From Planctomycetota bacterium (lineage in GTDB: Bacteria > Planctomycetota > SZUA-567 > H5-PLA8), in contig JAOSKN010000002.1 in the NCBI GenBank assembly GCA_027493525.1, forward strand, positions 1,271,326 through 1,335,325: a stretch of 64,000 bases of DNA. Reading direction: 5' to 3'. The notes below the pieces were generated by a model, which was not told where the DNA came from, searched no databases, and saw nothing but the letters and a program-made list of their open reading frames with translations. The position numbers and the translations under genes are program-made. This document shows positions 5,565-54,130 of this stretch, piece by piece (within the stretch, counting starts at the first letter, position 1; every line of letters starts with the position of its first letter).

Positions 5565-7424
5565 ATGGCTCAGTACGTTCCGAATTCCGACGACGCGCAA
5601 TTCGATCAATATGCGGGCCAGGAATTCGAGGATCCGCTGGCCTACGCGAGCGCGCAGCCCAAGCGGATCGACGCAAAATTCTTCCTCAAGCCGGTCCAGG
5701 ATGAATTGCTGCGGCTGATCGAGCTGGCCTTGGAAGGGCTGGCGGCGCTCCCGGTGCGAAATGGGACCGGAAGTCTGCTGGAAAAAGGCGCGCTGGTCCG
5801 CGTCGCCGGCTTCGACTCGGGCGCGTCGCGGTGGCTGGTGGAACCGGCCGACGCGAACGACGCTTCGCGGCCCGCGCAGTTCGTCCTGGACGAGGCGCTG
5901 GCCGACGAGGCCGAGGGCGTGGCGTACGCGCACCGAACGGTGAGCGGGCTGGACACGAGCGGGACGGCGCCGAACGATCCGGTGTATCTGTCGGCGGAGG
6001 AGGGCGTGTACGGCTTCGCGCCGCCGGAAGGCGCGGCGCGGGCGCAGGAGGTCGGGCGCGTCGCGGCGGTTGGGGCGGAGGGCGCGATCTGGTTCAGCGT
6101 GGGCGGCCTTGCGGCGGGGCGCGCCCCGGGCGGGACCGGCACGCCGGGCGCGCTGGCGCGCTGGAGCGGCGCGGGGGAGCTGGGCGACGCGGCGGTGAGC
6201 GACGACGGGAGCGATTTGACGCTGGCGCCGAGCGGGACGGTGTACGCGGCGGCGGCGCTGGTCCCGGACTCAGGAAACGCGCGGGACCTGGGGAGCGCGG
6301 AGGCGGCCTGGCGCGGCGCGTACCTGGGGGAGGACACCGGGAGCGGCGCGCACTTCGGCGCGGACGCGGACTGGCGCTGGTACTACGACGAGGCGGGGCT
6401 CGACGCGCTGATGCTGGCGGAAAGCGACGTTCCGGCGCTGGCGCTGAAGGGCTCGGACCCCGGGAATTTTAACGCGGTTTCGGACACGAATGGGAACGAC
6501 CTGTACTTCAAGACGCAGGGTGGCGGGGCGCACGCGGGCGGCAACCCGCGCGGCGGGCGGCTGATCTTCGTGACGGGCGCGGCCGGATCCGGCGGGTCGG
6601 GCGCCGAGGGCGACGTGCGTTTTCGAAGGAGCGACGGGAGCTACGAGCTGCGGATCGAGACGCGCAATTCACTGGGGCGCGGCGGCTTCGACGTGACGAC
6701 GGGTTCGCTGCTGGATTTTCGCGTCAACGGGACGATCTGCCTGAGCATCTCGAGCGGCGGATTTCAGGTCGCTTCCAGCAAGGAATTCAGCTTCGGGACG
6801 ATCTCCAACGCGGTGCTGCGGCATGCGGCGATCGGGAGCGACGCGGCGACGTACGAGTTCCAGGTCATCGGGCAGAACGCGTTCGCGGCGGCATCGACGA
6901 ACCGCAACGGCGGGAACGTGGTCGTCACGCCCGGGGCGCACGCGACGTCGGGCGGCGCGGCGGGGCGCCTGGTCGTGCGCGACCCGCACGGTTCGGCGGG
7001 CGTCGACGAGGTTCACGTGCAGCACGACGGGACCGACGCGCGGATCGAGCCGAAGAGCGGGGAACTGCGCGTGGCCGGGAGCGGGCTGCGCGTGGAGAAC
7101 GGCTGCGCGCTGGACGCTCAGACGCCGGCGGCGCTGGACTCGGACGCGAACGATTACGATCCGGGCGCGAGGACGTTCACGCGGCTGAGCGCGAGCGCGG
7201 CGCGGAACGTGACCGGCCTGGCCGGCGGGAGCGACGGGCGGCAATTGTGGGTCGCCAACGCGGGGAATTTCGCGATCGTCTTCAAACACGAGGCTGCCGG
7301 ATCGGCGGCGGCCAATCGCCTGATCGGGATCGGCGGGACCGACGTGACGCTGGCCGCGAACGAGACGGCGATTCTGATCTATGACGGGACGACGCAGCGC
7401 TGGCGGTTCATGGCGAGGACGTAG
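5565..7424 (+). CDS. phage tail fibre-like protein (Gly/Ala/Ser-rich, 619 aa)
   Basis: A long clean ORF with Gly-rich beta-strand-like composition typical of tail fibres or spikes. It sits among phage-like neighbours; the assignment is from composition and context only. Confidence 0.6.
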   Translation: MAQYVPNSDDAQFDQYAGQEFEDPLAYASAQPKRIDAKFFLKPVQDELLRLIELALEGLAALPVRNGTGSLLEKGALVRVAGFDSGASRWLVEPADANDASRPAQFVLDEALADEAEGVAYAHRTVSGLDTSGTAPNDPVYLSAEEGVYGFAPPEGAARAQEVGRVAAVGAEGAIWFSVGGLAAGRAPGGTGTPGALARWSGAGELGDAAVSDDGSDLTLAPSGTVYAAAALVPDSGNARDLGSAEAAWRGAYLGEDTGSGAHFGADADWRWYYDEAGLDALMLAESDVPALALKGSDPGNFNAVSDTNGNDLYFKTQGGGAHAGGNPRGGRLIFVTGAAGSGGSGAEGDVRFRRSDGSYELRIETRNSLGRGGFDVTTGSLLDFRVNGTICLSISSGGFQVASSKEFSFGTISNAVLRHAAIGSDAATYEFQVIGQNAFAAASTNRNGGNVVVTPGAHATSGGAAGRLVVRDPHGSAGVDEVHVQHDGTDARIEPKSGELRVAGSGLRVENGCALDAQTPAALDSDANDYDPGARTFTRLSASAARNVTGLAGGSDGRQLWVANAGNFAIVFKHEAAGSAAANRLIGIGGTDVTLAANETAILIYDGTTQRWRFMART

Positions 7425-10715: not shown

Positions 10716-12827
10716 ATGCCGGCATCGGCGGTGGTGAAGCTGCCTACGGGCGCGGATTTTCGGGCGGCGGTGTACGGGGTTTCGTTCGCGGGGTCGGCGG
10801 ACCCGGAAGGCGGGGCGCGGCGCGCGCCGGGGTCGCGCTTCGCGTTCGCGTCGGAGGTGCTCCTGCAGAGCGGGGCGCGGCCCTCGCACGCGCTGGTGGA
10901 GCTGCCGCTGGGGGCGTGGTCGGAGCGCGCGCCGAGGGTGGCGGCGGCGGAAGGCGGGCCGCTGGCGGGCGTAAAGCTGGGCACGCGCGCGAAGGCGCAC
11001 GTGCTGAGCGGGAAGCGGGCGTACACGCTGCTGGTGGGGAGCGTGGCGGCGATCCAGCACGACCTGGGCGCGGACGCGGCGACGCTGACGGTGCTGGACG
11101 ACCGCTGGCTGCTGGAGGGCGTGCCGGTGGCGGGCCAATTCATCCGCGATCCGGCGCGGGAATTGACGCTATACCGAGAGCGGGGGCCGTGCCGTTTCAA
11201 TCCGGACGGGCGGCCGAATTGCCTGGACACGGCGGCGGGCCCGCTCTTCGCGCCGTACCCGGGCTACGGCCGCGCGGACGGGGACGCCGAGCCGGCGCCG
11301 GGCGCGGCGACGGCGGCGGCGCGGCCGTGGCGGCACGCGGACATCGCCGAGTACCTGGCGGCGACGCTGGCGAGCGAGGCGTACGCGGCGGAGACGGCGG
11401 CGTTCCCGCACTTCGCGCGCGCGGACGCTTCGCGGGTGCTCGTGCCCGCGGGCCTGGGGCTGGCGCTGCTGGGGGACGCGGAGCACGAGCCGGAGGACGC
11501 GCGGGGCGCGGGCGGGTTCACGGCGGCCGACCGGGAGGGCGCGGGGCGCGCGCCGGACCTGACGCTGGAGGGGCTGGACCTGCTGGCGGCGCTGAACCGG
11601 GTCGTGGAGAGCGCGGGGGCCTACGCATTGTGGTGCGCGCCGCTGGAGGATTCGTGGCGTTCGGTCCTGCGGATCGTGCCGGCGCGGCACCTCGACGGGG
11701 CCGGGGGCACGGCGCTGGCGCGGCCGGCGGGCGGGGCGCTGGGGGCGCACGGCGGGGCGCTGGGGGCGCGGGCGGGGACGCTGGAGGAGGACGGGACGGA
11801 GCTGTACACGCGCGTGGTGGTGGCGGGGGACGCGGCGGAGCTGGAGCGGCGGCTGGCGTTCGAACCGGAGGGCGGGGGCGGGCTGGCGGCGGCGTGGAGC
11901 GCGGAGGACGAGGAGGCGTTCCGCGCGTACGTGCGCGACCATCCGGAGCATCCGGGCTCGGCCGAGGCGTTCCTGGAGGCGGCGTGGCGCTACCCGCGGG
12001 TCTTCGCGGCCTATCACGTCGACGCGGAATTCGACTGGCTGGAGGGGACGAAATACGCGGGCTTCCCGCGGGCGACGCCGCATCCGCCGATCCTGCCGCG
12101 GCTGCTCTCGGAATTCACGGAGGAAATCGAGGGTCAAATCCGGCGGGTATTCCCGGCCGCGACGACGGTGGAACTGGCCGACGACGAGGGCGAATTCCGG
12201 GCGCGCACGCAACTGGACGGGCTGGAGGTGGACGACGACGGGACGCTGTGGCTGCCGGGACTGCGCGAGGCGGGGCTGTCCGATCCGCAATCGGGGACCT
12301 GGAAGGGGGATCTGGCGGACGCCGGGACGCTGGAGGCGCGCGCGCTGCGGGTGACGCTGGCGCTGCGGCTGGACGCGCGGCTGACGGCGGCGCTGGGGCT
12401 GCACGGCTCGGGCGAAGGAGCGGGCGCCGATCCGAACGCCGAGGCCGGGGCGCTCGCCGAGGGCCTCGCGCGGACCTACCGGGTCGATGCGGAGGGCGCG
12501 TACCGGGAGCATCTGCGCAGGGAGAGTTGGCCGGTTCCGGAGAGCGTGGAGGGGGCGGAGGCGGCGCCGGATCGGGCGGCGGAGGGCGCGGAGCTGCGCG
12601 GCGACGGGGCGCGCGCGCGGGCGCACGCGCAGCGGCGGCTGGCGGAGGTGGCGCGGGCGCGGCGGAGCGGGCGGCTGATCTTCCCCGCGCCGGCGCTGTG
12701 GACGCCGGGGACGGCGATCGAGGAGCTGGTGAACGCGGGCGGGACGGGGCGCTATCCGGTGCGGGGCGTGGTGGCGCGGGTGCGGCATTCGTACGCGCGG
12801 CAGGAGACGGAGGTGGAGCTGGCTTGA
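10716..12827 (+). CDS. large hypothetical protein (phage-like module); start uncertain
   Basis: A 2.1-kb clean ORF. The overlapping long ORFs on other frames and on the minus strand are Arg/Gly-rich artefacts. Confidence 0.55.
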   Translation: MPASAVVKLPTGADFRAAVYGVSFAGSADPEGGARRAPGSRFAFASEVLLQSGARPSHALVELPLGAWSERAPRVAAAEGGPLAGVKLGTRAKAHVLSGKRAYTLLVGSVAAIQHDLGADAATLTVLDDRWLLEGVPVAGQFIRDPARELTLYRERGPCRFNPDGRPNCLDTAAGPLFAPYPGYGRADGDAEPAPGAATAAARPWRHADIAEYLAATLASEAYAAETAAFPHFARADASRVLVPAGLGLALLGDAEHEPEDARGAGGFTAADREGAGRAPDLTLEGLDLLAALNRVVESAGAYALWCAPLEDSWRSVLRIVPARHLDGAGGTALARPAGGALGAHGGALGARAGTLEEDGTELYTRVVVAGDAAELERRLAFEPEGGGGLAAAWSAEDEEAFRAYVRDHPEHPGSAEAFLEAAWRYPRVFAAYHVDAEFDWLEGTKYAGFPRATPHPPILPRLLSEFTEEIEGQIRRVFPAATTVELADDEGEFRARTQLDGLEVDDDGTLWLPGLREAGLSDPQSGTWKGDLADAGTLEARALRVTLALRLDARLTAALGLHGSGEGAGADPNAEAGALAEGLARTYRVDAEGAYREHLRRESWPVPESVEGAEAAPDRAAEGAELRGDGARARAHAQRRLAEVARARRSGRLIFPAPALWTPGTAIEELVNAGGTGRYPVRGVVARVRHSYARQETEVELA

Positions 12828-12935: not shown

Positions 12936-13335
12936 TCGGTGTGGCTCGTTTGCTGTTTTCATTTTGCTGTTTGTTTGAGATTTGGTTCTTGTCGTTTGCC
13001 GTTTTGAGTCCTGAAGGGTCGAATGAGAATAGCCCAGCGATTCATCGCTGGGAAAATGGTTGGGTTCGCTGGGCGCGGGAAGCATCAAATCAAAAGAACC
13101 AAAACCCAAACAAATTTCAAACGGCAAGAACAAAATTCCAAACAATCGGCGAACAGATCGGCGCTCGAACTCATGCCGCCCCTGCGGGGCTCAAACGAGT
13201 CAAGGGCCGAGTACCAGGGGCTTACGCCCTGGCTATAGCATGGCGGCCCCGCGGGCCTGAATGGCGGTATGGGAATTCATGCCGCGATTGTTAAGTTAAG
13301 GAAATGTGACTGCAACAGCCGGTGACCGGCCCCGG

Positions 13336-29346: not shown

Positions 29347-29434
29347 TGGAGGAGGACAGAGGACTCGAACCCCACTCCCGAAGGAGCGATCCGTTTTCGA
29401 GACGGTCCCGGCACGCCTGTCCGGTTTATCCTCC
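29347..29434 (-). tRNA. tRNA-Ser(CGA)
   Basis: Manual cloverleaf: GGAGGAT/GTCCTCC acceptor stem, long variable arm, CCA encoded. Confidence 0.8.
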
Positions 29435-29446
29435 CGGTGCGGGCGC

Positions 29447-30022
29447 CTATCCGACGCCCTGCATCCGCTGGCCTAGTACGAACGGCGCCCAACGCGGCTC
29501 GTGATGGACGATTCGCGGCGGGAGCTGTTCGGGGCGCGCGGGCCGGCTGCGCAGCGCCATGCCCGCCGTCTCCGGCGTGCGGTCGCGCTTGCGCCGGTTG
29601 CACGGCACGCAGGCGGCGACGCAGTTGGCCCAGACTGAGCAGCCCCCCTGTGCGCGCGGCAGGACGTGGTCCACGGTCAGCTTGTGCGCCGGCAGATGCG
29701 CGCCGCAGTACTGGCACGTGTAGCCGTCCCGGCGGAGCACGTTGTACCGGGAGAACGCCGGCTTGCGCTCGGGCACGCGGTCGTAGAAGGTCAGCACGAT
29801 CACCTCGGGCGCGAGGAGGTCGCACGTCGCCGTGCGCACCCGCGGCGAATCGGGCGCGCAGGCCACGCGGGTCCAGGACGCGAAATCGTGCGTGGAGTAG
29901 TCCTCCAGCCGCACGGCGCGCGCGTGGCCGTCCACGAGCTTGCAGAGCGCGCGGAGCACCGACGTCACGTCGATCGGCGTCCAGTGCTTGTTGAGGACCA
30001 GCGTCGGCCGTTCCAGTACCAC
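29447..30022 (-). CDS. HNH endonuclease
   Basis: The HNH motif is present: YTCQYCGAHLPAHKLTVDHVLPRAQGG...NCVAACVPCNRRK. Confidence 0.8.
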   Translation of the reverse strand: MVLERPTLVLNKHWTPIDVTSVLRALCKLVDGHARAVRLEDYSTHDFASWTRVACAPDSPRVRTATCDLLAPEVIVLTFYDRVPERKPAFSRYNVLRRDGYTCQYCGAHLPAHKLTVDHVLPRAQGGCSVWANCVAACVPCNRRKRDRTPETAGMALRSRPARPEQLPPRIVHHEPRWAPFVLGQRMQGVG

Positions 30023-30044
30023 CAGCGTGTCCTTTCCGTTGCGT

Positions 30045-30118
30045 TGGCAAGGCGCCGAGGAGTCGAACCCCGCCGGGCGGTTTTGGAGACCGCTCAGGTC
30101 CCCGGACCATCGCGCCTT
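30045..30118 (-). tRNA. tRNA-Trp(CCA)
   Basis: Manual cloverleaf; anticodon loop CTCCAAA. Confidence 0.8.
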
Positions 30119-30138
30119 GTCGTATCCGCCTCTCGAAC

Positions 30139-30213
30139 TGGCTCGCCCGCCGGGAGTCGCACCCGGACCTCGACCTTCGCAAAGTCGTGTGCGGTCTGTT
30201 ACACCACGGGCGG
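30139..30213 (-). tRNA. tRNA-Arg(GCG) candidate, with C1xA72 mismatch
   Basis: A full cloverleaf with anticodon loop TTGCGAA. It is a paralog of the tRNA at 36302..36377. Confidence 0.55.
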
Positions 30214-30225
30214 ATTGGGCTCTCC

Positions 30226-30300
30226 TGGCGCCTCCGCGAGGACTCGAACCCCGATCGGCCGGTTAGAAGCCGGCTGCTCTGTCCCTTGAGCTACGAAGGC
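30226..30300 (-). tRNA. tRNA-Arg(TCT)
   Basis: Manual cloverleaf; anticodon loop CTTCTAA. Confidence 0.8.
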
Positions 30301-30309
30301 GCTGCGGAT

Positions 30310-30383
30310 TGGCGCTCCCGGGAGGATTTACACCCCCAACTCCCGGTTCGAAGCCGGGTATGATTCTGTTTCACCACGGGAGT
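30310..30383 (-). tRNA. tRNA-Arg(TCG) candidate, with A1xC72 mismatch
   Basis: Cloverleaf with anticodon loop CTTCGAA. Confidence 0.6.
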
Positions 30384-30422
30384 CCGAATTTCATGCTCAT
30401 TCTTCAACCTTAATTCCACATG

Positions 30423-30496
30423 ATGGTGTCCCGGGAGGGACTTGCCCCCCCAACTTCCTGACCCTGAATCGGGCGCCTCTGCTTGGGCTACCGGGA
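30423..30496 (-). tRNA. atypical tRNA-like gene (anticodon CAG, short variable arm, T-loop GGCAAGT, 3-bp D stem)
   Basis: The acceptor GTCCCGG/CCGGGAC pairs perfectly and CCA is encoded. The anticodon stem carries a C/A mismatch, and there is no long variable arm, so it is not a canonical tRNA-Leu. Confidence 0.4.
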
Positions 30497-30597
30497 CACA
30501 ACGCCTCGCCTCCATGCGGGGGCCGGAGAGCCGCGCGCCGGACGGCGCGCGGTTCTGCGAACTCCGCGTTCCCGCGCGCATGGCCTCGCGCGCAACA

Positions 30598-30683
30598 TGG
30601 TCGGGGCGGGGAGAGTCGAACTCCCATGGGCGAACCCGCCGGCCTCTCGAACCGGTGCGTATGCCTAGTTCCGCCACGTCCCG
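30598..30683 (-). tRNA. tRNA-Leu(GAG) (type II), with one acceptor mismatch
   Basis: 86 nt, with a long variable arm and A73. The anticodon loop is TCGAGAG. Confidence 0.6.
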
Positions 30684-30690
30684 AATGTCA

Positions 30691-30930
30691 TGGTGTCGCG
30701 GGCAGGACTTGCACCTGCACTAAGTACCGCGCCGCGAAAGTTCCTGACCCACTGCTGGAGCCTTTTGTCCCGGCTCTTCGTTGCGCCTTGGTCTCAGATC
30801 TTCGTCCCGATATGCTCCCTCGGCGCGCCTCGACCCGGGACAAAATGCCCGGCGCATTGGGCCAGCTACTTTCGCGGCGCGGTACCAAGCCGGGTTTGAG
30901 CCGGCCGCCTCTGCATTGGGCTACCGCGAC
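30691..30930 (-). pseudogene. tRNA-like gene (paralog of 30423..30496, anticodon CAA) split by a 162-bp insertion
   Basis: The 3' half at 30691-30723 carries the T-arm, CCGCGAC and CCA. The 5' half at 30886-30930 reads GTCGCGGTAGCCCAATGCAGAGGCGGCCGGCTCAAACCCGGC. The halves are separated by the element at 30724..30885. Confidence 0.5.
30724..30885. mobile_element. 162-bp MITE-like insertion with perfect 18-bp inverted ends GTACCGCGCCGCGAAAGT
   Basis: The inverted ends sit at 30724-30741 and 30868-30885. The core matches the roughly 105-bp unit (TTTTGNCCNGG ... CCGGGACAAAA) seen near 2490, 9780, 9940 and 62050. Confidence 0.65.
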
Positions 30931-30952
30931 ACGATTCAAGTTCCATGCAATG

Positions 30953-31036
30953 AGGAGCGCGGAGGAGTCGAACCCCATGCCTCGCGGCACGCGCGGTCTT
31001 CCAAACCGTCTCGAGCACCGGCTCGAATCACACTCC
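30953..31036 (-). tRNA. tRNA-Ser(GGA) (type II, CCA not encoded)
   Basis: GGAGTGT acceptor stem, anticodon loop TTGGAAG, and a long variable arm. Confidence 0.65.
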
Positions 31037-31065
31037 GGATCAAGTTTTCCTTTCACGTCTCAAAT

Positions 31066-31152
31066 TGGAGGAGGGCGGAGGACTTGAACCTCATGCCCGC
31101 AGGCACGCCCTGTGTAGCAGACAGGCCCGGAAACCCATCCGGGTCACCCTCC
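31066..31152 (-). tRNA. tRNA-Ser(GCT) (type II)
   Basis: 87 nt; anticodon loop CTGCTAC; CCA encoded. Confidence 0.75.
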
Positions 31153-31164
31153 GCACCTAGAAAA

Positions 31165-31253
31165 TGGTCGCCCCGGAGGGAGTCGAACCCTCACGTCCTA
31201 AACGGACACGAGCTTCTGAGGCTCGCGCGTCTTCCAGATTCCGCCACAGGGCG
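31165..31253 (-). tRNA. tRNA-Leu(CAG) (type II)
   Basis: 89 nt; anticodon loop CTCAGAA; A73; CCA encoded. Confidence 0.8.
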
Positions 31254-31346
31254 AAGGAATTGGGACCGCGGAGGCGGCGCGCTCCAGGGGTGGAGCCGCC
31301 TGGGAGAGGGCGCGCACCGCGCTCCGCAATCCGGTTCCTTATTCAG

Positions 31347-32654
31347 CTACAGGAGCTTGACCACACGGTCGGCCAAGCCCTTCTCACCCAACATCACGGT
31401 CAGGTTGGCCTTCTGCGTGACCTTCTCCAGGACCTCCAGCTCGCGCAGGCGCATCAGCGTCGGGTTGTGCTCCAGCACCTTCGCCGTGTTGGCCTGCATG
31501 CGCATGGCCGCGGTCTCCTCGCGGCGCGTGATCAGAGCCGCCTCGGCCGCCTTCTTGGCCTCGGTGACCTTGTTCAACAGGTCCTTCATCTCGCCCGGCA
31601 GGATCACGTCACGGATGCCGAGCGCGATCACTTCCAGGCCGAACGCCGTGGCGCGGTCCTTCAACTGCCCTTCCAGCTCGCGCGCCACTTCGTCCTTGGC
31701 CGCCAGCAGCGCATCGAGATCGCGCGTGCCGATCGCTGCCCGCAGGCTCAACTGCGCCTCGCGGTACAGCGCCTGGCGGTAGTCGTCGGTGACCGTCGCC
31801 GCCTTCACGGCGTCGGCCACGCGGAAGTTCACGACCGCGTTGAGGCGCAGCGTCACCTTGTCGGCGGTCATGATCTCCTGGCCCTGGATGTCCACGACCT
31901 GCTCGCGCAGGTCCACCGTGAACAGCCGCACCTGGCCCACGTCCTTCCAGAACGCGTGCTTTCCGGCGCCCAGCGTGGCCTGGTGCGCGCCGTCCTTGAA
32001 GAAGACGGCGGCGTGGCCCGGCTCGACCGCCAGCCACTCGAGCGCCTCCTGCGCGCCGGCGGCCTTCTGGATGGCCGCCAGTTCGCCGTGCTCGAAGCGT
32101 CCCTTGCCCGCGTCCACGACCTCGACCTTGACGTCGTGGTACTTGGTCGGGATCAGGTGCAGGCCGCGCCCGAGCACGCGCTCGAAGCGCCCGTCGCGCC
32201 AGACGAGCGCGCGCTCGCGGTCCTTCAGGTCCACGGCGCGGGCCTCGCCGTCGAAGGCGCCCGTGGCGAGCACTTCCGCCAGGTCGCGGTGCGCGAAGAC
32301 CGCGGCGCGCAGGTCCACGACGTCCACGCGGACGTCGCGGAAGACCGTCCAGAGGACGTAGCGGCCTGGCTTCAGGACGCGCTCCAGGCGCCCGTCGAGC
32401 CACACGATGCCGCGTTCGTGCGCCTTCAGCTCGACTACGCGGGCGTCCTTGCCCAGGCGGCCGCTCTTCACGATCACGTCCAACTGGGCGTGCTCGAACC
32501 AGGCCTCGCGCACGTTGACCTTCTCGACGCGGACCCGGAAGAACGGGTCGGCAAAGCGGTGCTTGCCCGGCTGCAGCAGCCCCTCGAACTGGCCCTCGCG
32601 GAAGAGCAGGCCGCGCTCGTGCGGCAGGATCTTGAACGTACGCATCAGCAGCAT
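31347..32654 (-). CDS. SPFH/band-7 (stomatin/slipin-like) domain protein
   Basis: The ORF is protein-like from MLLMRTFKILPHERG onward. The SPFH core is recognisable (VVNFRVADAVKAATVTDDYRQAL), followed by a coiled-coil C-terminus. Confidence 0.8.
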   Translation of the reverse strand: MLLMRTFKILPHERGLLFREGQFEGLLQPGKHRFADPFFRVRVEKVNVREAWFEHAQLDVIVKSGRLGKDARVVELKAHERGIVWLDGRLERVLKPGRYVLWTVFRDVRVDVVDLRAAVFAHRDLAEVLATGAFDGEARAVDLKDRERALVWRDGRFERVLGRGLHLIPTKYHDVKVEVVDAGKGRFEHGELAAIQKAAGAQEALEWLAVEPGHAAVFFKDGAHQATLGAGKHAFWKDVGQVRLFTVDLREQVVDIQGQEIMTADKVTLRLNAVVNFRVADAVKAATVTDDYRQALYREAQLSLRAAIGTRDLDALLAAKDEVARELEGQLKDRATAFGLEVIALGIRDVILPGEMKDLLNKVTEAKKAAEAALITRREETAAMRMQANTAKVLEHNPTLMRLRELEVLEKVTQKANLTVMLGEKGLADRVVKLL

Positions 32655-33050
32655 GCTGCACCTCGCCTTCTCGGGTGGCGGCCACAGGGCCGCCTTCAAC
32701 CCGCTGCCCTCTTGGTTCGTGCCCCGGTCGGGCCAGGGCAGAGCTTGTTCGCGACGCCGGCGGCGAAACGACCTTTGGGAGGCGGACCGCCGGTCCGCCA
32801 CACCTTCGGCACGGAGCACCGCTTGAGCCCCGCGCTACTCCCGGATTCGAGCCCCGGCTTGCGCGCGCGAACCCTACGGGCTTCACGCGCGCGCCCCGGA
32901 ACCGTCTCCCGGTTTGGCGCAGGACGGTATCCGCGCGCTTCAGGGCGCCGTCGCGTGCTGCCGAATTCCGAGCTGGAACGAGCCTCGAAATCCGGCGGGC
33001 CGAGCGCGACGACCGCCCCCCTCGGGCCTCACGGTTACGCTTTTGCAAGC

Positions 33051-33122
33051 GTGTTGGCGCAGGATTCGAACCTGCAACTCACGGATTAAAAATCCGCTGC
33101 TCTTCCCTTGAGCTAGCCATGG
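33051..33122 (-). tRNA. tRNA-Lys(TTT)-like; acceptor 5' strand poorly paired (possible pseudogene)
   Basis: The D-arm (TAGCTCAAGGGAAGAGC), anticodon loop (TTTTTAA) and T-arm (GCAGGTTCGAATCCTGC) are canonical, but only 4 bp of the acceptor stem pair. Confidence 0.5.
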
Positions 33123-33205
33123 TCGGATGGCGGGAGTCGAACCCGCGTTCCCCTTGCGAGGAACCAGTTCCAAGCTGGCGCGCCTTCCCCGGCGCGTCAT
33201 CCGTG
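33120..33205 (-). tRNA. atypical tRNA-like gene (Pro-TGG-like anticodon hairpin CTTGGAA, extended variable region)
   Basis: A T-arm (GCGGGTTCGACTCCCGC) and a CCA end are present. The acceptor has one mismatch and the structure is irregular. Confidence 0.35.
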
Positions 33206-33214
33206 GTGCGCGGC

Positions 33215-33287
33215 AAGCCGGGCGAGATTCGAACTCGCGTCCTCCGGGGCAACCGCCCCGGCGCTCTGCCACTGAGCTACCCGCCTC
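33215..33287 (-). tRNA. tRNA-like gene, identity undetermined (6-nt anticodon loop, acceptor mismatch)
   Basis: The D-arm (TAGCTCAGTGGCAGAGC) and T-arm (GCGAGTTCGAATCTCGC) are canonical. The anticodon hairpin CCGGGG CGGTTG CCCCGG is irregular. Confidence 0.4.
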
Positions 33288-33452
33288 CGCGCGCGACTGA
33301 CATTTCGCCTTCGTCAGATCCCATGTCCGGAACACGCGCGGGCGATCACGGTGTGAGCCCGCACGCGCCGCTGGCCCGGCGTCGGTCAGTATTCGGTTTT
33401 GTCATCGAACCACCCGGTCTCCTTGTTTTTCCCGGTCTGCGATACTGCCTCA

Positions 33453-33526
33453 TGGCGCCCGCTGGAGGAGTCGAGCCTCCGTCTCCACCGCGTCGAGGTG
33501 GCGCTCTCCCGTTGAGCTAAGCGGGC
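33453..33526 (-). tRNA. tRNA-Val(GAC)
   Basis: Perfect acceptor GCCCGCT/AGCGGGC; anticodon loop TCGACGC; CCA encoded. Confidence 0.75.
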
Positions 33527-33531
33527 CGAGC

Positions 33532-33605
33532 TGGTAGCCGCTGAAGGAGTCGAACCTTCGTCTCCAGCGTGTGAAGCTGGCGCCCTGCCCTTAGGCGAAG
33601 CGGCT
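33532..33605 (-). tRNA. tRNA-Val(CAC)
   Basis: Acceptor AGCCGCT/AGCGGCT; anticodon loop TTCACAC; CCA encoded. Confidence 0.75.
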
Positions 33606-33606
33606 A

Positions 33607-33692
33607 TGGGGGCCTCGACGGGATTTGAACCCGCACCACGCGAGCGAGCGGCCTTTGGGAAACGCGCTTCCCAGTCACGGCGGTTTGCGGCC
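33607..33692 (-). tRNA. tRNA-like element (T-arm + acceptor + CCA), probable pseudogene
   Basis: The 3' end reads GCGGGTTCAAATCCCGT CGAGGCC C CCA. The 5' partner GGCCGCA leaves 2 mismatches, and no clean anticodon arm is visible. Confidence 0.3.
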
Positions 33693-33845
33693 AGGTCCCG
33701 TACGGTTACCCGTACGGGCGTGACACGGTGCATCCTCAACCCTTGCCGCGCCCCACACCCGATCAGGCCCCACGGGCCTTCGCGATCGGTAGCAGGTCTC
33801 GCGTGCCCTGTTACGGGGCCGGTTCTACGTTTTCCGGCAGGCTGC

Positions 33846-34015
33846 CTTGTGAGCGCGTCCTAAAACGCCTCGCGATCGTCTTGGGGCGGCGGGCCGCGCG
33901 ATGCTTCGTTGGCCTGCTCGCCGTATGCTCGTTCCGATACGGCTTGCGCGGCCGCCTCGCCTCGCTTGCCCGGCGCTCCCAAGCCGCCTCGCGATCCGAT
34001 TTCAGGACGCACTCA
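33846..34015. repeat. about 165-bp dispersed repeat (copy 2 of 2)
   Basis: Matches 23826..23995. Confidence 0.7.
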
Positions 34016-34046
34016 TTGCCTCACGAGGCCCAGCGTTATTCGGTTT

Positions 34047-34122
34047 TGGTAGCGAGCCGTGGAATCGGACCACGCTTGCAGGCTTATGAGACCCGCCAGA
34101 CCCCCAGGCCTTGCCACTCGCT
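34047..34122 (-). tRNA. tRNA-Met(CAT)-like (elongator Met or Ile-lysidine type)
   Basis: Acceptor AGCGAGT/GCTCGCT; anticodon hairpin CGGGT CTCATAA GCCTG; T-loop TCCGATT; CCA encoded. Confidence 0.55.
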
Positions 34123-34181
34123 ATCGAACGCTTTTCCTCCTTTGCTCGGTCCTCAGTCCTCGGTGCTCCGTCCTGCCGTAA

Positions 34182-34265
34182 TGGTGGGGTCGTAAGGAAT
34201 CGAACCTCCCAGCCTCGCGGCGCAGGGGTTACGGCCCTGCCCTGATCCCACTCAGCAGCGACCCC
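34182..34265 (-). tRNA. tRNA-Tyr(GTA) (type II)
   Basis: Perfect acceptor GGGGTCG/CGACCCC; anticodon loop CCGTAAC; long variable arm; CCA encoded. Confidence 0.75.
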
Positions 34266-34352
34266 GATCCAAATACGGAATGTCGAATTCGGAATGCGGA
34301 ATAATGAAAGAATCCGCAGGCCATTTTCGTTTCATTCCGGAGCCTTAATTCA

Positions 34353-34430
34353 TGGTCGGGATGGAGGGATTCGAACCCCCGATCTCCTGGCCCCCAGCCA
34401 GGCGCGCTGGCCATGCTGCGCTACATCCCG
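34353..34430 (-). tRNA. tRNA-Pro(GGG)
   Basis: Acceptor CGGGATG/CATCCCG; anticodon loop CTGGGGG; CCA encoded. Confidence 0.8.
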
Positions 34431-34450
34431 ATGCGGCCCTCCTTCGAGTT

Positions 34451-34528
34451 TGGTCGGGGTGGCAGGATTCGAACCTGCGACCTCTGCAATCCGAATGCAG
34501 CGCGCTCGCCAAACTGCGCTACACCCCG
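34451..34528 (-). tRNA. tRNA-Pro(CGG)
   Basis: Acceptor CGGGGTG/CACCCCG; anticodon loop TTCGGAT; CCA encoded. Confidence 0.8.
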
Positions 34529-34631
34529 GGGAACGGCTGTGATCTGTAATCTGTAATCTGAGGCTCCACCTTTCATTCTGGTACCGACTCGTACCTTATT
34601 CACTGTTCACAGATCACAGACCACAGATCTC

Positions 34632-34707
34632 TTGGCGGGGCCCCCGGGAATCGAACCCGGTTCTCCTGCGCTTCAGGCAGGCGCAATGACCACACCTGCT
34701 CAAGCCC
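34632..34707 (-). tRNA. tRNA-Phe(GAA)
   Basis: Anticodon loop CTGAAGC; CCA encoded. Confidence 0.75.
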
Positions 34708-34709
34708 CA

Positions 34710-34786
34710 CTGGCGCCCGCGGCCGGAGTCGCACCGGCTTACTCCACCGTGACAAGGTGGCGGCTCCACTGTTTCGCCTTCGCGGG
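34710..34786 (-). tRNA. tRNA-Asp(GTC)
   Basis: Acceptor GCCCGCG/CGCGGGC; anticodon loop TTGTCAC; CCA encoded. Confidence 0.8.
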
Positions 34787-34803
34787 CCCTGCTCCTTTGC
34801 GTA

Positions 34804-34877
34804 TGGAGGCCGCGGAGGGCTTCGCACCCCCGTGGACGGCTTTGCAGGCCGCCGCCTTGCTCCTCGGCCACGCGGCC
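34804..34877 (-). tRNA. tRNA-Cys(GCA)
   Basis: Acceptor GGCCGCG/CGCGGCC; anticodon loop CTGCAAA; CCA encoded. Confidence 0.8.
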
Positions 34878-34892
34878 GAATCTCCGCCGGCA

Positions 34893-34967
34893 TGGGGTGA
34901 CTTGCGGGAGTTGAACCCGCTCTGCGAGCCTCACAAGCTCGCGTGCGCCCGGCACACTCAAGCCACC
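34893..34967 (-). tRNA. tRNA-His(GTG) with encoded G-1
   Basis: Anticodon loop TTGTGAG. An extra 5' G pairs with C73, which is a His identity element. Confidence 0.8.
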
Positions 34968-34977
34968 ATCCAAGTCC

Positions 34978-35051
34978 TGGTCGGACGGGGAGGAATCGAA
35001 CCTCCGCCGGCTGCTCATCAGACAGCCGTGCTCCCGTTACACCACCGTCCG
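34978..35051 (-). tRNA. tRNA-Ile(GAT)
   Basis: Acceptor CGGACGG/CCGTCCG; anticodon loop CTGATGA; CCA encoded. Confidence 0.8.
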
Positions 35052-35056
35052 CCCGT

Positions 35057-35611
35057 TCACTGCTTCTCGGCGCCCTGCGCCAGCCACTCTTCGCGCAGCA
35101 GGCCCATGACCAGCGTGTCCTGGTACCGGCCTTCGAAGTAGGCGTTCTGGCGCAGCACGCCTTCCTTGATAAAGCCGGCCTTCTCGTAGGCCCGGATCCC
35201 GCCGCGATTGCAGGCGAAGACGTGCAGGTAGATGCGGTTCAGGTTCAGCGTTTCGAACCCGTATCCGACGATCAACCGGGTCGCTTCGGTCCCGTAGCCT
35301 TTGTTCCATTCCTCTTTCGCACCGATGTAGATGCCGAACTCGGCGCGGCGGTCCTTTTCGAGCCCCGGGCGGAGCCCGGTTCCGCCGAGGAAACGGTCGT
35401 TCTCCTTCAAGGCGATCGCGAGGACGGTCTGGCGCTCGTCGACCAGGACCTTGTCCAGCCACTGCTCTTCGGCTTCCTTCGTCAGCGGCCGATGCCAGTT
35501 CAGTGTTCGCGCGACTTCGCCGTCGTTGAGGTACGTCAGGATCTGCGGCACGTCCTCCTTGCTCAGTGGCCGCAGGTAGATCCGCTCGCCGATCAGGAAT
35601 GCGTTGTGCAT
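35057..35611 (-). CDS. GNAT family N-acetyltransferase (RimJ/RimL-like)
   Basis: Begins MHNAFLIGERIYLRPLSKEDV. An acetyl-CoA-binding motif is present (RNAYFEGRYQDTLVMGLL). The gene is embedded in the tRNA array. Confidence 0.8.
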   Translation of the reverse strand: MHNAFLIGERIYLRPLSKEDVPQILTYLNDGEVARTLNWHRPLTKEAEEQWLDKVLVDERQTVLAIALKENDRFLGGTGLRPGLEKDRRAEFGIYIGAKEEWNKGYGTEATRLIVGYGFETLNLNRIYLHVFACNRGGIRAYEKAGFIKEGVLRQNAYFEGRYQDTLVMGLLREEWLAQGAEKQ

Positions 35612-35628
35612 GGCCCACTTTCCTTTCC

Positions 35629-35702
35629 TGGTTGGCCCGCGAGGATTCGAACCTCGGCCTGCGGAGCCAAAGTCCGCCGTCCTGCCTCTAGACGACGGGC
35701 CA
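35629..35702 (-). tRNA. tRNA-Gln(TTG)
   Basis: U1:A72; anticodon loop CTTTGGC; CCA encoded. Confidence 0.8.
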
Positions 35703-35709
35703 TTCGATC

Positions 35710-35785
35710 TGGCGTCCCCGGCGGGATTCGAACCCGCGTCGCCAGGCTGAGAACCTGGCATCCTCAACCGCTAGACGACAGGGAC
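35710..35785 (-). tRNA. tRNA-Glu(CTC)
   Basis: Anticodon loop TTCTCAG; CCA encoded. Confidence 0.8.
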
Positions 35786-35795
35786 ACTGCTGCAT

Positions 35796-35870
35796 TGGAA
35801 CGGCCGGCGGGAATCGAACCCGCCCTTCGACGTTGGAAGCGTCGCGTGCGCCCGCTCACACTTCGACCGC
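35796..35870 (-). tRNA. tRNA-Gly(TCC)
   Basis: Anticodon loop CTTCCAA; CCA encoded. Confidence 0.7.
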
Positions 35871-35910
35871 CTGCGCTTTGATCCTCCCAAGAACCTCGCA
35901 CCTGCCGTCT

Positions 35911-35984
35911 TGGCTGCGGGGCAAGGATTCGAACCTCGCTTTCCTGGTTCAGAGCCAGGCGTCCTGCCGCTAGACGACCCCGCA
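35911..35984 (-). tRNA. tRNA-Gln(CTG)
   Basis: U1:A72; anticodon loop CTCTGAA; CCA encoded. Confidence 0.8.
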
Positions 35985-35988
35985 ACGT

Positions 35989-36064
35989 TGGTGCGTCCGG
36001 TGGGGCTCGAACCCACACGCACCCGGGTAAGAACCGGGCTCTCTGCCACTCGAGTTCCAGACGC
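35989..36064 (-). tRNA. tRNA-Lys(CTT)
   Basis: Anticodon loop TTCTTAC; CCA encoded. Confidence 0.8.
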
Positions 36065-36074
36065 GACCTGTACG

Positions 36075-36147
36075 TGCCTCCGGGAGGATTCGAACCTCCA
36101 CCCCTCGGCTTAAAAGGCCGGTATGCTGCCGTTGACACCACGGAGGC
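36075..36147 (-). tRNA. tRNA-Lys(TTT) (CCA not encoded)
   Basis: Perfect acceptor GCCTCCG/CGGAGGC; anticodon loop CTTTTAA. Confidence 0.75.
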
Positions 36148-36202
36148 GCACGTTTGATTGCTTTTCGTTTCACGCTCGCCTCCAAGTCCCGCTCCTCCCG
36201 TT

Positions 36203-36276
36203 TGGCAGCCCCACGGGGATTTGAACCCCGACCTCCGGATTGAAACTCCGGCATCCTCCCCTTAGACGATGGAGCC
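36203..36276 (-). tRNA. tRNA-Glu(TTC)
   Basis: Anticodon loop GTTTCAA; CCA encoded. Confidence 0.75.
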
Positions 36277-36301
36277 GCTTTGCGTTTCATGCTCCCTGCA
36301 T

Positions 36302-36377
36302 TGGTGGAGCGGCCGGGACTCGCACCCGGAACTCGACCGTGCGAAAGTCGTGTGTTGCTGGTTAGCACCACCGCCCC
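36302..36377 (-). tRNA. tRNA-Ala(CGC) with G3:U70
   Basis: Acceptor GGGGCGG/CCGCTCC carries the G3:U70 Ala identity pair. Anticodon loop TTCGCAC. Confidence 0.7.
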
Positions 36378-36396
36378 ACGCTGCGTACGCCTCCTT

Positions 36397-36470
36397 TGGC
36401 TCCGGCGGGAGGATTCGAACCTCCGTCTCCTGATTAACAGTCAGGGATGTTGCCCTTACACCACACCGAA
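36397..36470 (-). tRNA. tRNA-Asn(GTT)
   Basis: Anticodon loop CTGTTAA; CCA encoded. Confidence 0.8.
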
Positions 36471-36476
36471 CCGCGT

Positions 36477-36550
36477 TGGTGGAGCGTGCGGGACTTGAAC
36501 CCGCATCCCGAGGCTGCCGGCCTCGCATCCTTCCGTTGAACGAACGCCCC
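36477..36550 (-). tRNA. tRNA-Ala(GGC) with G3:U70
   Basis: Acceptor GGGGCGT/ACGCTCC; anticodon loop CCGGCAG. Confidence 0.75.
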
Positions 36551-36567
36551 ACGGGTACTTCACAAGC

Positions 36568-36638
36568 TGGAGCCGCAGGCAGGAGTCGAACCCGCCAGGC
36601 CTCTTTACGAAAGAGGCGCGTGCCCGGCACACCGCGGC
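36568..36638 (-). tRNA. tRNA-Thr(CGT)
   Basis: Anticodon loop TTCGTAA; short D arm; CCA encoded. Confidence 0.7.
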
Positions 36639-36649
36639 AGAGCACGAAC

Positions 36650-36723
36650 TGGAGCCGCCCGAGGGAATCGACCCCCCCTGCTCGCCACCAGGGAGCCGTG
36701 CGAACCATCGGCGCCGGAGCGGC
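36650..36723 (-). tRNA. tRNA-Thr(GGT)
   Basis: Anticodon loop CTGGTGG; CCA encoded. Confidence 0.65.
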
Positions 36724-36733
36724 CCGTCGAAAC

Positions 36734-36806
36734 TGGAGCGGGGGCGGGAATCGAACCCGCGTCTCGAGCTCGGCATGCTCGCGCTCTCCCGTTGAGCTAC
36801 ACCCGC
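36734..36806 (-). tRNA. tRNA-Gly(GCC)
   Basis: D-arm TAGCTCAACGGGAGAGC; anticodon loop ATGCCGA; CCA encoded. Confidence 0.75.
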
Positions 36807-37454
36807 TTTGCGTACGTTCCTCCGCGGCGAGACAACAAGGCCCCGGCGAAGAACCGTGGGTTCTTCGAAAATCTGCCTTGTGGTTTTGCGGCGGGCGCGC
36901 GACGCCTCATCCGAAAATTAAGTCTTAGAATCCGACCCAATTCCCTCGCGCGCCCGTCGTTCGCGGCCTGCGCCGCCGGCACGTCCTCAACGCAAAACAA
37001 AAAAGCCTTCCCGGGTCGTCCCCAGGAAGGCTCTGGCCTTGCGGCAGTTAGAAGCTCTTCCTAGGGTGTGGAGCCTCCGTTGAAGCTCCGCTCGCCGTTG
37101 GCGTACGGCATATCGCCATGGGCGAGGCTCGATTCCGTTGAGCCGCCTTTGGCGCATGGGCCGCCCGCGACGCGCCACGCTTGGGGCGCGTATGCGGCGG
37201 ATAGGAAGAAGGTTCGCTGCGTCATCGTACGTTCCGTCCCTTTCAAACGACTTGCCTCAACCAACCGCACAAAGCCGGATTCGTCAAGAGGCGCCGGGAC
37301 ATATTTCGAACAAAAATGCGTTCAAAATGCTGCCAATCGAGGCGCGCGATCCGGGAGGGCGGGGACGGCACTGGCAGCCCGGGGGCGGCGCGCTAGGCTT
37401 GTAACATCCTTGGAACGGCTTGTTACCAGGCGCCACGACGCAAGGAACGCCCGC

Positions 37455-54043: not shown

Positions 54044-54130
54044 GCCCAGGTGGCGGAATTGGCAGACGCGCTGGCTTCAGGTGCCAGTGGCCGCAAGGCC
54101 GTGGAGGTTCAACTCCTCTCCTGGGCACCA
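54044..54130 (+). tRNA. tRNA-Leu(CAG) (type II)
   Basis: Acceptor GCCCAGG/CCTGGGC; anticodon loop TTCAGGT; long variable arm; A73; CCA encoded. Confidence 0.8.

Follow-up and report, generated by a model that had tools for sequence, protein, structure and literature searches.

Long tRNA arrays are known in bacteria, and their function is poorly understood. A tRNA array unit has been defined as at least 20 tRNA genes at a density of at least 2 per kb (Tran et al. 2016, PMC4758250). L-arrays are long, same-strand, non-periodic and sporadically distributed arrays that are linked to HNH endonuclease genes, and they have already been noted in Planctomycetes (Santamaria-Gomez et al. 2021, PMC8421152). 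Functional data exist for only one of them, the trn array of Anabaena sp. PCC 7120, which is silent and is induced by ribosome-targeting antibiotics, while L-arrays studied elsewhere were poorly expressed in standard conditions (PMC8421152). The trn array is controlled by the repressor TrcR, and the genes derepressed most strongly in the absence of TrcR include the HNH gene all8564, RtcB, two GNAT genes and alr0739-alr0740, of which alr0740 encodes a slipin family protein (PMC10272220). The array and these partners also respond to antibiotics that target the ribosome, by which they are derepressed (PMC10272220, PMC8421152). These partners are tied to the array solely by the shared repressor. 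Here, we analyzed a stretch of 64,000 nucleotides from a Planctomycetota bacterium (contig JAOSKN010000002.1), referred to below as the window, the minus strand of which carries at positions 29347-36806 a long tRNA array that contains an HNH endonuclease gene, a slipin (SPFH) gene and a GNAT acetyltransferase gene.

As a tRNA array, this locus belongs to the known L-array kind. ARAGORN called 31 tRNA genes in it and at least 36 are counted when Rfam is included, at 4.8 per kb (36 tRNA genes in 7.46 kb, a span that includes the three protein genes), which places it well within the size and density of a tRNA array unit (PMC4758250). It also shares with L-arrays the same orientation and short spacers of its genes, the non-periodic organization, the sporadic distribution and the linked HNH gene (PMC8421152). 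What is new is that a core composed of a structured RNA and a slipin gene, together with a conserved 5' element, frames such arrays across phyla, and that the partner genes match the stress regulon of Anabaena. On balance, we favor the explanation that the locus is an accessory, horizontally spread L-array, which expanded inside a conserved operon and would provide a back-up supply of tRNAs under stress.

A structured RNA and a slipin gene at the core of the locus

Homologs of the slipin were aligned, and 80 loci were taken from species-representative genomes and scanned for tRNAs. In these related loci, the slipin gene is nearly always accompanied by same-strand tRNAs 130-790 nt upstream. The number of tRNAs per locus ranges from 0 to 40, and the loci extend from those with one odd tRNA of variable anticodon to arrays of 24-40 tRNAs. 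The regions upstream of slipin were aligned, and a leader profile was built from 11 loci with nhmmer. This profile matched the window at 33120-32770 (E=2.9e-72), and a match to the tRNA-like domain and leader was found directly upstream of slipin in 68 of the 74 loci with enough upstream sequence, including loci in which ARAGORN called no tRNA. The loci with leader and slipin belong to at least four phyla and span Planctomycetota, Acidobacteriota, Desulfobacterales and Sumerlaeota.

The support for a conserved RNA structure came from nhmmer and from pair counting. RNAalifold, applied to an alignment of 28 sequences, yielded 49 pairs in 10 helices, which comprise a tRNA-like cloverleaf and a domain of ~290 nt with three inner helices (Table 1). 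In this structure 93.3% of the paired cells can pair, compared with 41-47% when the 3' partner was slid by 1-3 columns; the covariation score was 0.49, against ~0.12 for the slid partner, and 36 pairs had changed on both sides, against 13-19. In 500 shuffles, values as high as these were never attained. As a coding check, a reading-frame test on spacer lengths was used, the longest stop-free stretches being uninformative in GC-rich DNA. The lengths of the spacers between the conserved blocks were spread evenly over the three residues modulo 3, and therefore no reading frame is maintained across the blocks. A permissive scan with Rfam 15 found no family for 32770-33054 (in the window no hit exceeded 19 bits or improved on E ~4, and the related locus L027 gave no hit). 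We regard the ~290-nt RNA with its tRNA-like domain as a candidate for a new, previously undescribed structured RNA family.

The tRNA-like domain at the head of this RNA is not a canonical tRNA. It matches only positions 4-67 of the Rfam tRNA model and lacks the 7-bp acceptor stem, the CCA and a conserved anticodon: the anticodon differs in almost every locus, and the acceptor has a conserved A:A mismatch in the other loci. Two further aberrant tRNA-like genes precede it in the window. The first (33212-33286) sits, in one subfamily of loci, between a conserved ~70-nt element and the conserved tRNA-like domain, while in the second (33121-33204) the first acceptor pair is mismatched and the full CCA is absent.

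An expandable unit headed by a conserved 5' element

The other conserved part of the locus is a 5' element with compensatory changes in its stem. In ~30 related loci, nhmmer placed it at a distance of 100-250 nt before the tRNA that opens the unit. The number of tRNAs between this element and slipin is 0, 1, 2, 9, 14, 22, 24 or 26, depending on the locus. Because the position of the 5' element, immediately before the first tRNA, does not depend on how many tRNAs follow, the array can be described as an insert of variable length in one conserved unit. The order of this unit is 5' element, tRNAs, 70-nt element, one or more tRNA-like domains, structured RNA and slipin. The unit holds from 0 to ~30 tRNA genes with HNH and sometimes GNAT, and further tRNAs and HNH may come after slipin. 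Slipin is not carried along in the unit by chance but is, jointly with the structured RNA, its conserved anchor, a point that had been missed in an earlier reading of the window made from its letters and predicted reading frames (the sequence-only reading).

The 5' element looks like a terminator or attenuator, and it is a candidate for an attenuator or for the end of a small RNA. Since no same-strand gene precedes it in the window, it is not simply the terminator of a gene. No family for it was found in a permissive Rfam search. A small regulator open reading frame (ORF) ending at the CCCTAG motif was also considered and was rejected, because a search for conserved ORFs gave no conserved protein. 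Inside the array, the terminator scan found only weak stems of 5-7 bp, mostly within tRNA genes or within the insertion described below.

The slipin protein

The Band_7 domain and the helix that follows it place the protein in the slipin/stomatin (SPFH) family, and its sequence is 100% identical to that of an NCBI 'slipin family protein' of a Planctomycetota metagenome-assembled genome (MAG). In the AlphaFold2 model, which has a mean pLDDT of 83.5, four five-stranded beta repeats at the N terminus are followed by the SPFH domain and a C-terminal helix of 60 residues, and fold searches returned stomatin, prohibitin and HflK/C as the top matches. However, the protein departs from its family in two respects. 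It has no N-terminal membrane anchor, its N terminus being formed by the four beta repeats and no segment being hydrophobic enough (maximum 19-residue hydropathy of 1.42), and its gene has RNA genes on both sides with no adjoining NfeD partner. A tblastn search of isolate phages and plasmids with this slipin recovered only ordinary SPFH genes, which matched its C-terminal half.

A ribonucleoprotein role for the slipin and the RNA is possible in view of their co-location. In its full form, this idea would hold that the tRNA-like domain, the ~290-nt RNA and the anchor-free slipin make up a cytosolic ribonucleoprotein, in which an SPFH ring or cage comparable to vaults or Ro-Y RNA particles handles tRNAs or their fragments, by capture, storage or presentation, for RtcB-dependent repair in translational stress, with the tRNA-like gene serving also as a landing site for HNH-driven arrays. 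We consider this full scenario quite unlikely.

HNH and GNAT genes within the array

The two other protein genes of the array also recur with tRNAs. Eleven other long arrays contain, in the same orientation, an ortholog of the HNH endonuclease (45-55% identity). An ortholog with 55% identity to the GNAT protein of the window, the start codon of which was chosen from the translation, is found in the related locus L021, where tRNAs lie on its flanks too. In addition, RtcB lies within 10 kb of slipin in 14 of the ~80 related loci. Against the PADLOC defense-system models, the GNAT and slipin proteins gave no match, and the HNH protein showed only generic HNH-domain similarity, e.g., to PtuB. All of the ORFs embedded in the array are intact, and their GC contents at third codon positions (GC3) of 0.82-0.94 are of the coding type.

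Related loci, genomic setting and the phage alternative

Long arrays were found in Planctomycetota MAGs (L003 and L010), in an Acidobacteriota genome (L014), in Planctomycetia, Pirellulales and Thermoguttaceae MAGs (L064, L067, L068, L069 and L078) and in Adhaeretor mobilis HG15A2 (L050). In one Planctomycetia MAG, a single contig (CAWDRV010000004.1) carries two of them ~50 kb apart, L067 (292737-313828) and L078 (242953-264029), with 35 and 40 tRNAs and each with HNH and slipin. A. mobilis HG15A2, for which the published description states no tRNA count in its text, is a cultured organism with a complete genome (NZ_CP036263.1, 3044629-3065714), in which an array of 30 tRNAs is joined to the leader and slipin and RtcB lies ~2.4 kb upstream of the array. 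The window has a gene order in common with L010, L003 and L065, in which slipin stands in the middle of the array and is followed by Leu, several Arg tRNAs, Trp and HNH. The tRNAs of these three loci are 70-92% identical to those of the window, compared with 55-76% for other types of array, and are still called as tRNAs.

While the arrays are orthologous, their neighborhoods are not the same. The genes that flank the array in the window are shared by none of the array-bearing loci, and where the flanking isomerase and oxidoreductase genes have their nearest available relatives (74-76% amino acid identity), the site is occupied by an ABC-transporter operon and has no tRNAs. The sequence-only reading had described arrays of this size as uncommon in bacteria and often mobile or phage-associated. 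The synteny comparison bears this out, since flanking genes differ among related genomes and the presence of the array is sporadic (0-40 tRNAs); the same conclusion is supported by a terminase gene near one relative and by an HNH gene of the same family on a Methylibium plasmid.

The relative in question (L085) is a 94-kb IMG/VR contig (IMGVR_UViG_3300007072_000340), on which 36 tRNAs, HNH, leader and slipin are found with a terminase large-subunit gene 5.5 kb downstream, so that at least one copy of the module is carried by a phage or prophage. This supports the most probable of the rival explanations, according to which the array is phage cargo, that is, an array of a large phage that sustained translation while host defenses cut or depleted tRNAs or that fitted the codon usage of the phage, and which is present here in a prophage remnant or in domesticated form. 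Consistent with it, when isolate collections were searched at the DNA level with the array tRNAs and HNH, the top-scoring matches were tRNA clusters in large Caulobacter, Gordonia, Mycobacterium and Tunturiibacter phages, and mycobacterial arrays are discussed as anti-defense elements (PMC12803027). A DNA search of isolate phages and plasmids with the whole array recovered no close relative, the similarity being of the generic kind seen among tRNAs and HNH genes. However, only three of the slipin relatives found were on viral contigs and none were in isolate phage genomes, and the RNA-slipin core occurs mostly in array-free loci beside cellular genes. Moreover, the anticodon set of the array fits the GC3-rich codon usage of the host.

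The surroundings of the array are likewise mostly cellular. By Pfam, the window ORFs include RecO, a cyclophilin, AnmK, K+ channels, a sugar isomerase and oxidoreductase, and secreted beta-helix/PKD proteins. Among the scanned ORFs, which were not all of those in the window, there was no match to an integrase or conjugation family, and no phage structural, packaging or integrase gene was found beside the array in the same partial scan. The sole match to a phage family was a weak one to Phage_depo_C (E=3e-7) in a 619-amino-acid ORF at 5565-7424 (plus strand), 22 kb from the array. Taken together, these findings make phage cargo an unlikely origin of the window array. Elsewhere in the window, an Acido-Lenti-1 RNA motif (RF01687) was detected at 13007-13052 (minus strand; 49.6 bits, threshold 37), which has no relation to the array.

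Gene content, codon fit and integrity of the array

All of the genes detected by ARAGORN in the array lie on one strand, and in a scan of the whole window 25 array genes reached the Rfam tRNA gathering score. A permissive Rfam scan added five elements, at 33055-33119, 34714-34787 (Asp GTC), 30427-30497, 30953-31037 (Ser GGA) and 31069-31153 (Ser GCT), the last two of which are long-arm tRNAs. When a split tRNA is counted along with two weak remnants, one near 36622-36704 and the other where the gap 33606-34046 has its 3' end, the total is 36-39 tRNA or tRNA-like elements. The intergenic spacers are often only 1-17 nt. In a repeat search, the only similarity was generic to tRNAs (60-86%), and no tandemly repeated unit emerged. 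Reading of the sequences showed that the 3'-CCA is encoded by ~31 of 36 members, that G3:U70 is preserved in the two Ala tRNAs and that G-1 is present in the His tRNA.

These results agree with the sequence-only reading in most points. The ~39 tRNA and tRNA-like genes that it had counted on a single strand are matched by the 36-39 found on the minus strand with ARAGORN, Rfam and inspection; the multiplicities of the isoacceptors were reproduced and the short spacers were confirmed. Pfam identified the HNH, SPFH and GNAT genes, all on the minus strand, and ARAGORN found the second tRNA-Leu(CAG), on the plus strand, at the position that had been reported outside the array. In contrast, the statement that nearly all of the anticodons start with G or C was overstated: among 36 members, the first anticodon base is G in 16, C in 12 and T in 8, so that G or C accounts for 28 of 36 (78%). 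This bias can be attributed to the codon usage of the host, in which GC3 is 88% over 23 confident window genes. The array could read 98% of the codons of these genes, and all 20 amino acids are covered.

The array is nevertheless not a complete set. It has no initiator-like tRNA: the sole tRNA with a CAT anticodon carries an A1-U72 pair, and its T loop is atypical. Also missing are Ile-CAU, Ala-UGC, Val-UAC, Thr-UGU and Ser-UGA, and for the Leu UUR codons the only candidate is a tRNA(CAA) split by an insertion, a UAA tRNA being absent. The lack of an initiator-like tRNA and of several tRNAs with U at anticodon position 34 indicates that the array is not the only tRNA set of the cell.

Two other explanations must be weighed against these data. 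According to the first, the array was gained once and is now a silent, eroding and non-functional relic. Five to seven degenerate or interrupted members would suit such a history, as would the poor expression of L-arrays elsewhere (PMC8421152). However, ~30 members retain the cloverleaf, the identity elements and CCA at 70-92% identity to their orthologs, and their structure is therefore under purifying selection; in addition, the anticodon set follows the GC3 of the host and the embedded ORFs are intact. We thus find decay very unlikely as an account of the whole array. Finally, it is highly improbable that the array is the main housekeeping tRNA operon, inherited vertically as in Firmicutes, because, although it covers all amino acids and nearly all local codons with mostly canonical, CCA-encoding members, it lacks the tRNAs named above, the window has a second and more typical Leu-CAG outside the array, related loci hold from 0 to 40 tRNAs, one contig carries two arrays, and no flanking genes are common to the array-bearing loci.

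Table 1. Features of the tRNA array locus and associated elements (window coordinates unless stated otherwise)
Feature	Position	Strand	Description
Conserved 5' element	36989-37098	-	Small hairpin, invariant CCCTAG, 15-bp hairpin (GCCTTCCnGGG..CCCnGGAAGGC), then T-run; found by terminator scan
tRNA block 1	35629-36806	-	Gly GCC, degenerate remnant (~36622-36704), Thr CGT, Ala GGC, Asn GTT, Ala CGC, Glu TTC, Lys TTT, Lys CTT, Gln CTG, Gly TCC, Glu CTC, Gln TTG
GNAT acetyltransferase, 184 aa	35057-35611	-	Pfam Acetyltransf_3 (E=1e-25); NCBIfam matches; RimJ/RimL / AAC(6')-like group
tRNA block 2	34047-35051	-	Ile GAT, His GTG, Cys GCA, Asp GTC, Phe GAA, Pro CGG, Pro GGG, Tyr GTA, Met CAT (atypical, not initiator-like)
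440-nt spacer	33606-34046	-	No Pfam-positive ORF; tRNA T-arm/acceptor remnant at 3' end; partly conserved with L010
tRNA Val CAC and Val GAC	33453-33605	-	ARAGORN, Rfam
Conserved ~70-nt element	33307-33375	-	GCCAGCGGCGC...GTGATCG...GTTCCGnnCATGGGATCTGACGAAGG; precedes tRNA-like elements in many loci
Aberrant tRNA-like gene	33212-33286	-	6- or 8-nt anticodon loop (CGGTTG), no CCA; conserved in L003, L010, L013, L014, L025, L065
Aberrant tRNA-like gene	33121-33204	-	Long (type II) variable arm, Pro TGG anticodon
Conserved tRNA-like domain	33055-33119	-	Invariant D stem, covarying anticodon and T stems, 4-bp acceptor in the window, no CCA
Structured RNA, ~290 nt	32770-33054	-	Between tRNA-like domain and slipin start
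RNA helix P1 (long-range)	33028-33013 with 32785-32770	-	Closes the ~290-nt domain
RNA helix P2	32939-32935 with 32819-32815	-	
RNA helix P3	32924-32920 with 32832-32828	-	
RNA hairpin P4	32814-32798	-	
Slipin-family (SPFH) protein, 435 aa	31347-32654 (Met start)	-	Pfam Band_7 (E=1e-37)
tRNA block 3	30045-31253	-	Leu CAG, Ser GCT, Ser GGA (no CCA), tRNA(CAA) with 164-nt insertion, Leu GAG, short-variable-arm CAG tRNA (30424-30497), Arg TCG, Arg TCT, Arg GCG, Trp CCA
HNH endonuclease, 191 aa	29447-30022	-	Pfam HNH/HNH_5; array-associated family
tRNA Ser CGA	29347-29434	-	Last array member; ARAGORN, Rfam
Stand-alone tRNA-Leu(CAG)	54044-54130	+	ARAGORN, Rfam; 76% identical to array copy; more typical
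Terminase large-subunit gene of L085	16642-18315 (on L085)		GpA_ATPase (E=2e-31)

Unusual members of the array

Several individual members deserve a description. In the tRNA(CAA) at 30691-30930 (minus strand), the variable arm of which is short, an insert of 164 nt (30723-30886) interrupts the variable loop; without the insert this gene is a normal 76-nt tRNA. The insert has near-perfect inverted ends of 19 bp and folds into a long hairpin, and the window contains no other copy of this inverted repeat. The insert may be either a miniature inverted-repeat element or something akin to an intron. Leucine-anticodon tRNAs (CAG, CAA) with a short variable arm in place of the usual long arm of tRNA-Leu were also observed in the window at 30424-30497 (minus strand) and in L010 at 11231-11305, and these short-arm tRNAs have a common D arm, GTAGCCCAA..GCAGAGGCG.

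The tRNA-Arg(GCG) at 30139-30213 and the tRNA-Ala(CGC) at 36302-36377, both on the minus strand, have bodies that are 86% identical, with different acceptor stems and with the letters of the anticodon swapped. This likeness suggests a duplication followed by remolding within the array. Arg(GCG) is unusual in bacteria, in which ACG is normally used, and it recurs in the related arrays L003, L050, L056, L061, L063, L064, L067, L078, L079 and L085. Finally, the tRNA Ser CGA that ends the array could alternatively be a resident tRNA of the host.

A proposed back-up role under translational stress

If the locus is an accessory L-array with a back-up function, as we propose, the whole unit would be transcribed as one precursor from a promoter near 36810-37100, and the 5' hairpin would hold it largely silent until a signal permits read-through. 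RNase P and RNase Z would then release the CCA-encoding tRNAs, and the slipin mRNA would have its 5' end defined by the tRNA-like domain. Once freed, these tRNAs, which fit the GC-rich codon usage of the host, might serve as a reserve when translation inhibitors, toxin or anticodon nucleases, or phage impair the ribosome or the housekeeping tRNAs. The same response may involve slipin and GNAT and, where relatives carry it, the RNA ligase RtcB. The HNH endonuclease most likely aids the spread or retention of the array by homing, for which the 5' element and the RNA-slipin core could act as homology arms.

Some observations count against this proposal. Redundancy with the housekeeping set was seen, within the window, for a single tRNA, namely the Leu-CAG at 54044. 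Members of the array are degenerate at 33055-33286, 30953-31037, 30691-30930 and 36622-36704. In addition, the 5' hairpin could just be the end of a small RNA encoded upstream, in which case the array would have a promoter of its own after the hairpin. A scan for sigma-70-like promoters detected none, although planctomycete promoters may deviate from that consensus.

The locus offers three testable objects: a candidate RNA family with a tRNA-like domain, a terminator-like 5' element that may explain the silence of such arrays, and a soluble SPFH protein with an architecture that may resemble that of the major vault protein. As a cultured carrier, A. mobilis HG15A2 would be a practical organism for such experiments.

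Comparison with known systems

We found no paper in the literature that joins a tRNA array with an SPFH protein. Among the arrays already described, those of Mycobacterium, of mycobacteriophages and of integrative and conjugative elements of Acidithiobacillus resemble the window array in having at least 20 tRNAs at more than 2 per kb, atypical members and a mobile or phage-borne location (PMC5966550, PMC4758250, PMC12803027). The arrays of Mycobacterium and Acidithiobacillus differ in that they belong to other phyla and no slipin or RNA core is reported for them, whereas the window array is chromosomal. Closer in its HNH gene is the conjugative megaplasmid RPME01 of Methylibium petroleiphilum PM1 (NC_008826.1), on which a same-strand array of 27 tRNAs is ended by an HNH of the same family with 53% identity over the HNH core; there, AlkB and HD-domain genes stand in place of slipin and GNAT.

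The core of the unit recalls loci for RNA repair. The rsr-yrlA-rtcBA RNA-repair operon of Salmonella has a Y-RNA-like RNA with a tRNA-like domain. In Pseudomonas aeruginosa, the SPFH gene PaFlo8 lies inside the rtc RNA-repair locus (PMC13086221). The likeness to these two loci consists in the presence of a tRNA-like noncoding RNA, or of an SPFH protein, together with RtcB. The RNA described here nevertheless differs from that of Salmonella, since the YrlA model of Rfam scores only 19-26 bits (threshold 69) and no Ro60/Rsr gene was seen.

The greatest similarity is to the trn operon of Anabaena, which is likewise a long, single-strand, non-periodic and sporadic array with a linked HNH and is supernumerary, as the window array probably is, and the partner families slipin, GNAT and RtcB are the same in both, the match being at the family level. 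A structured RNA, a tRNA-like leader and a 5' hairpin element have not been described for Anabaena. The partners there are scattered and joined by a repressor, whereas in the window slipin, GNAT and HNH are physically inside the array. The physical joining of the same partner families (HNH, slipin and GNAT, with RtcB in relatives) in other phyla suggests that the idea of a tRNA back-up in translational stress reflects a cross-phylum pattern rather than a peculiarity of cyanobacteria.

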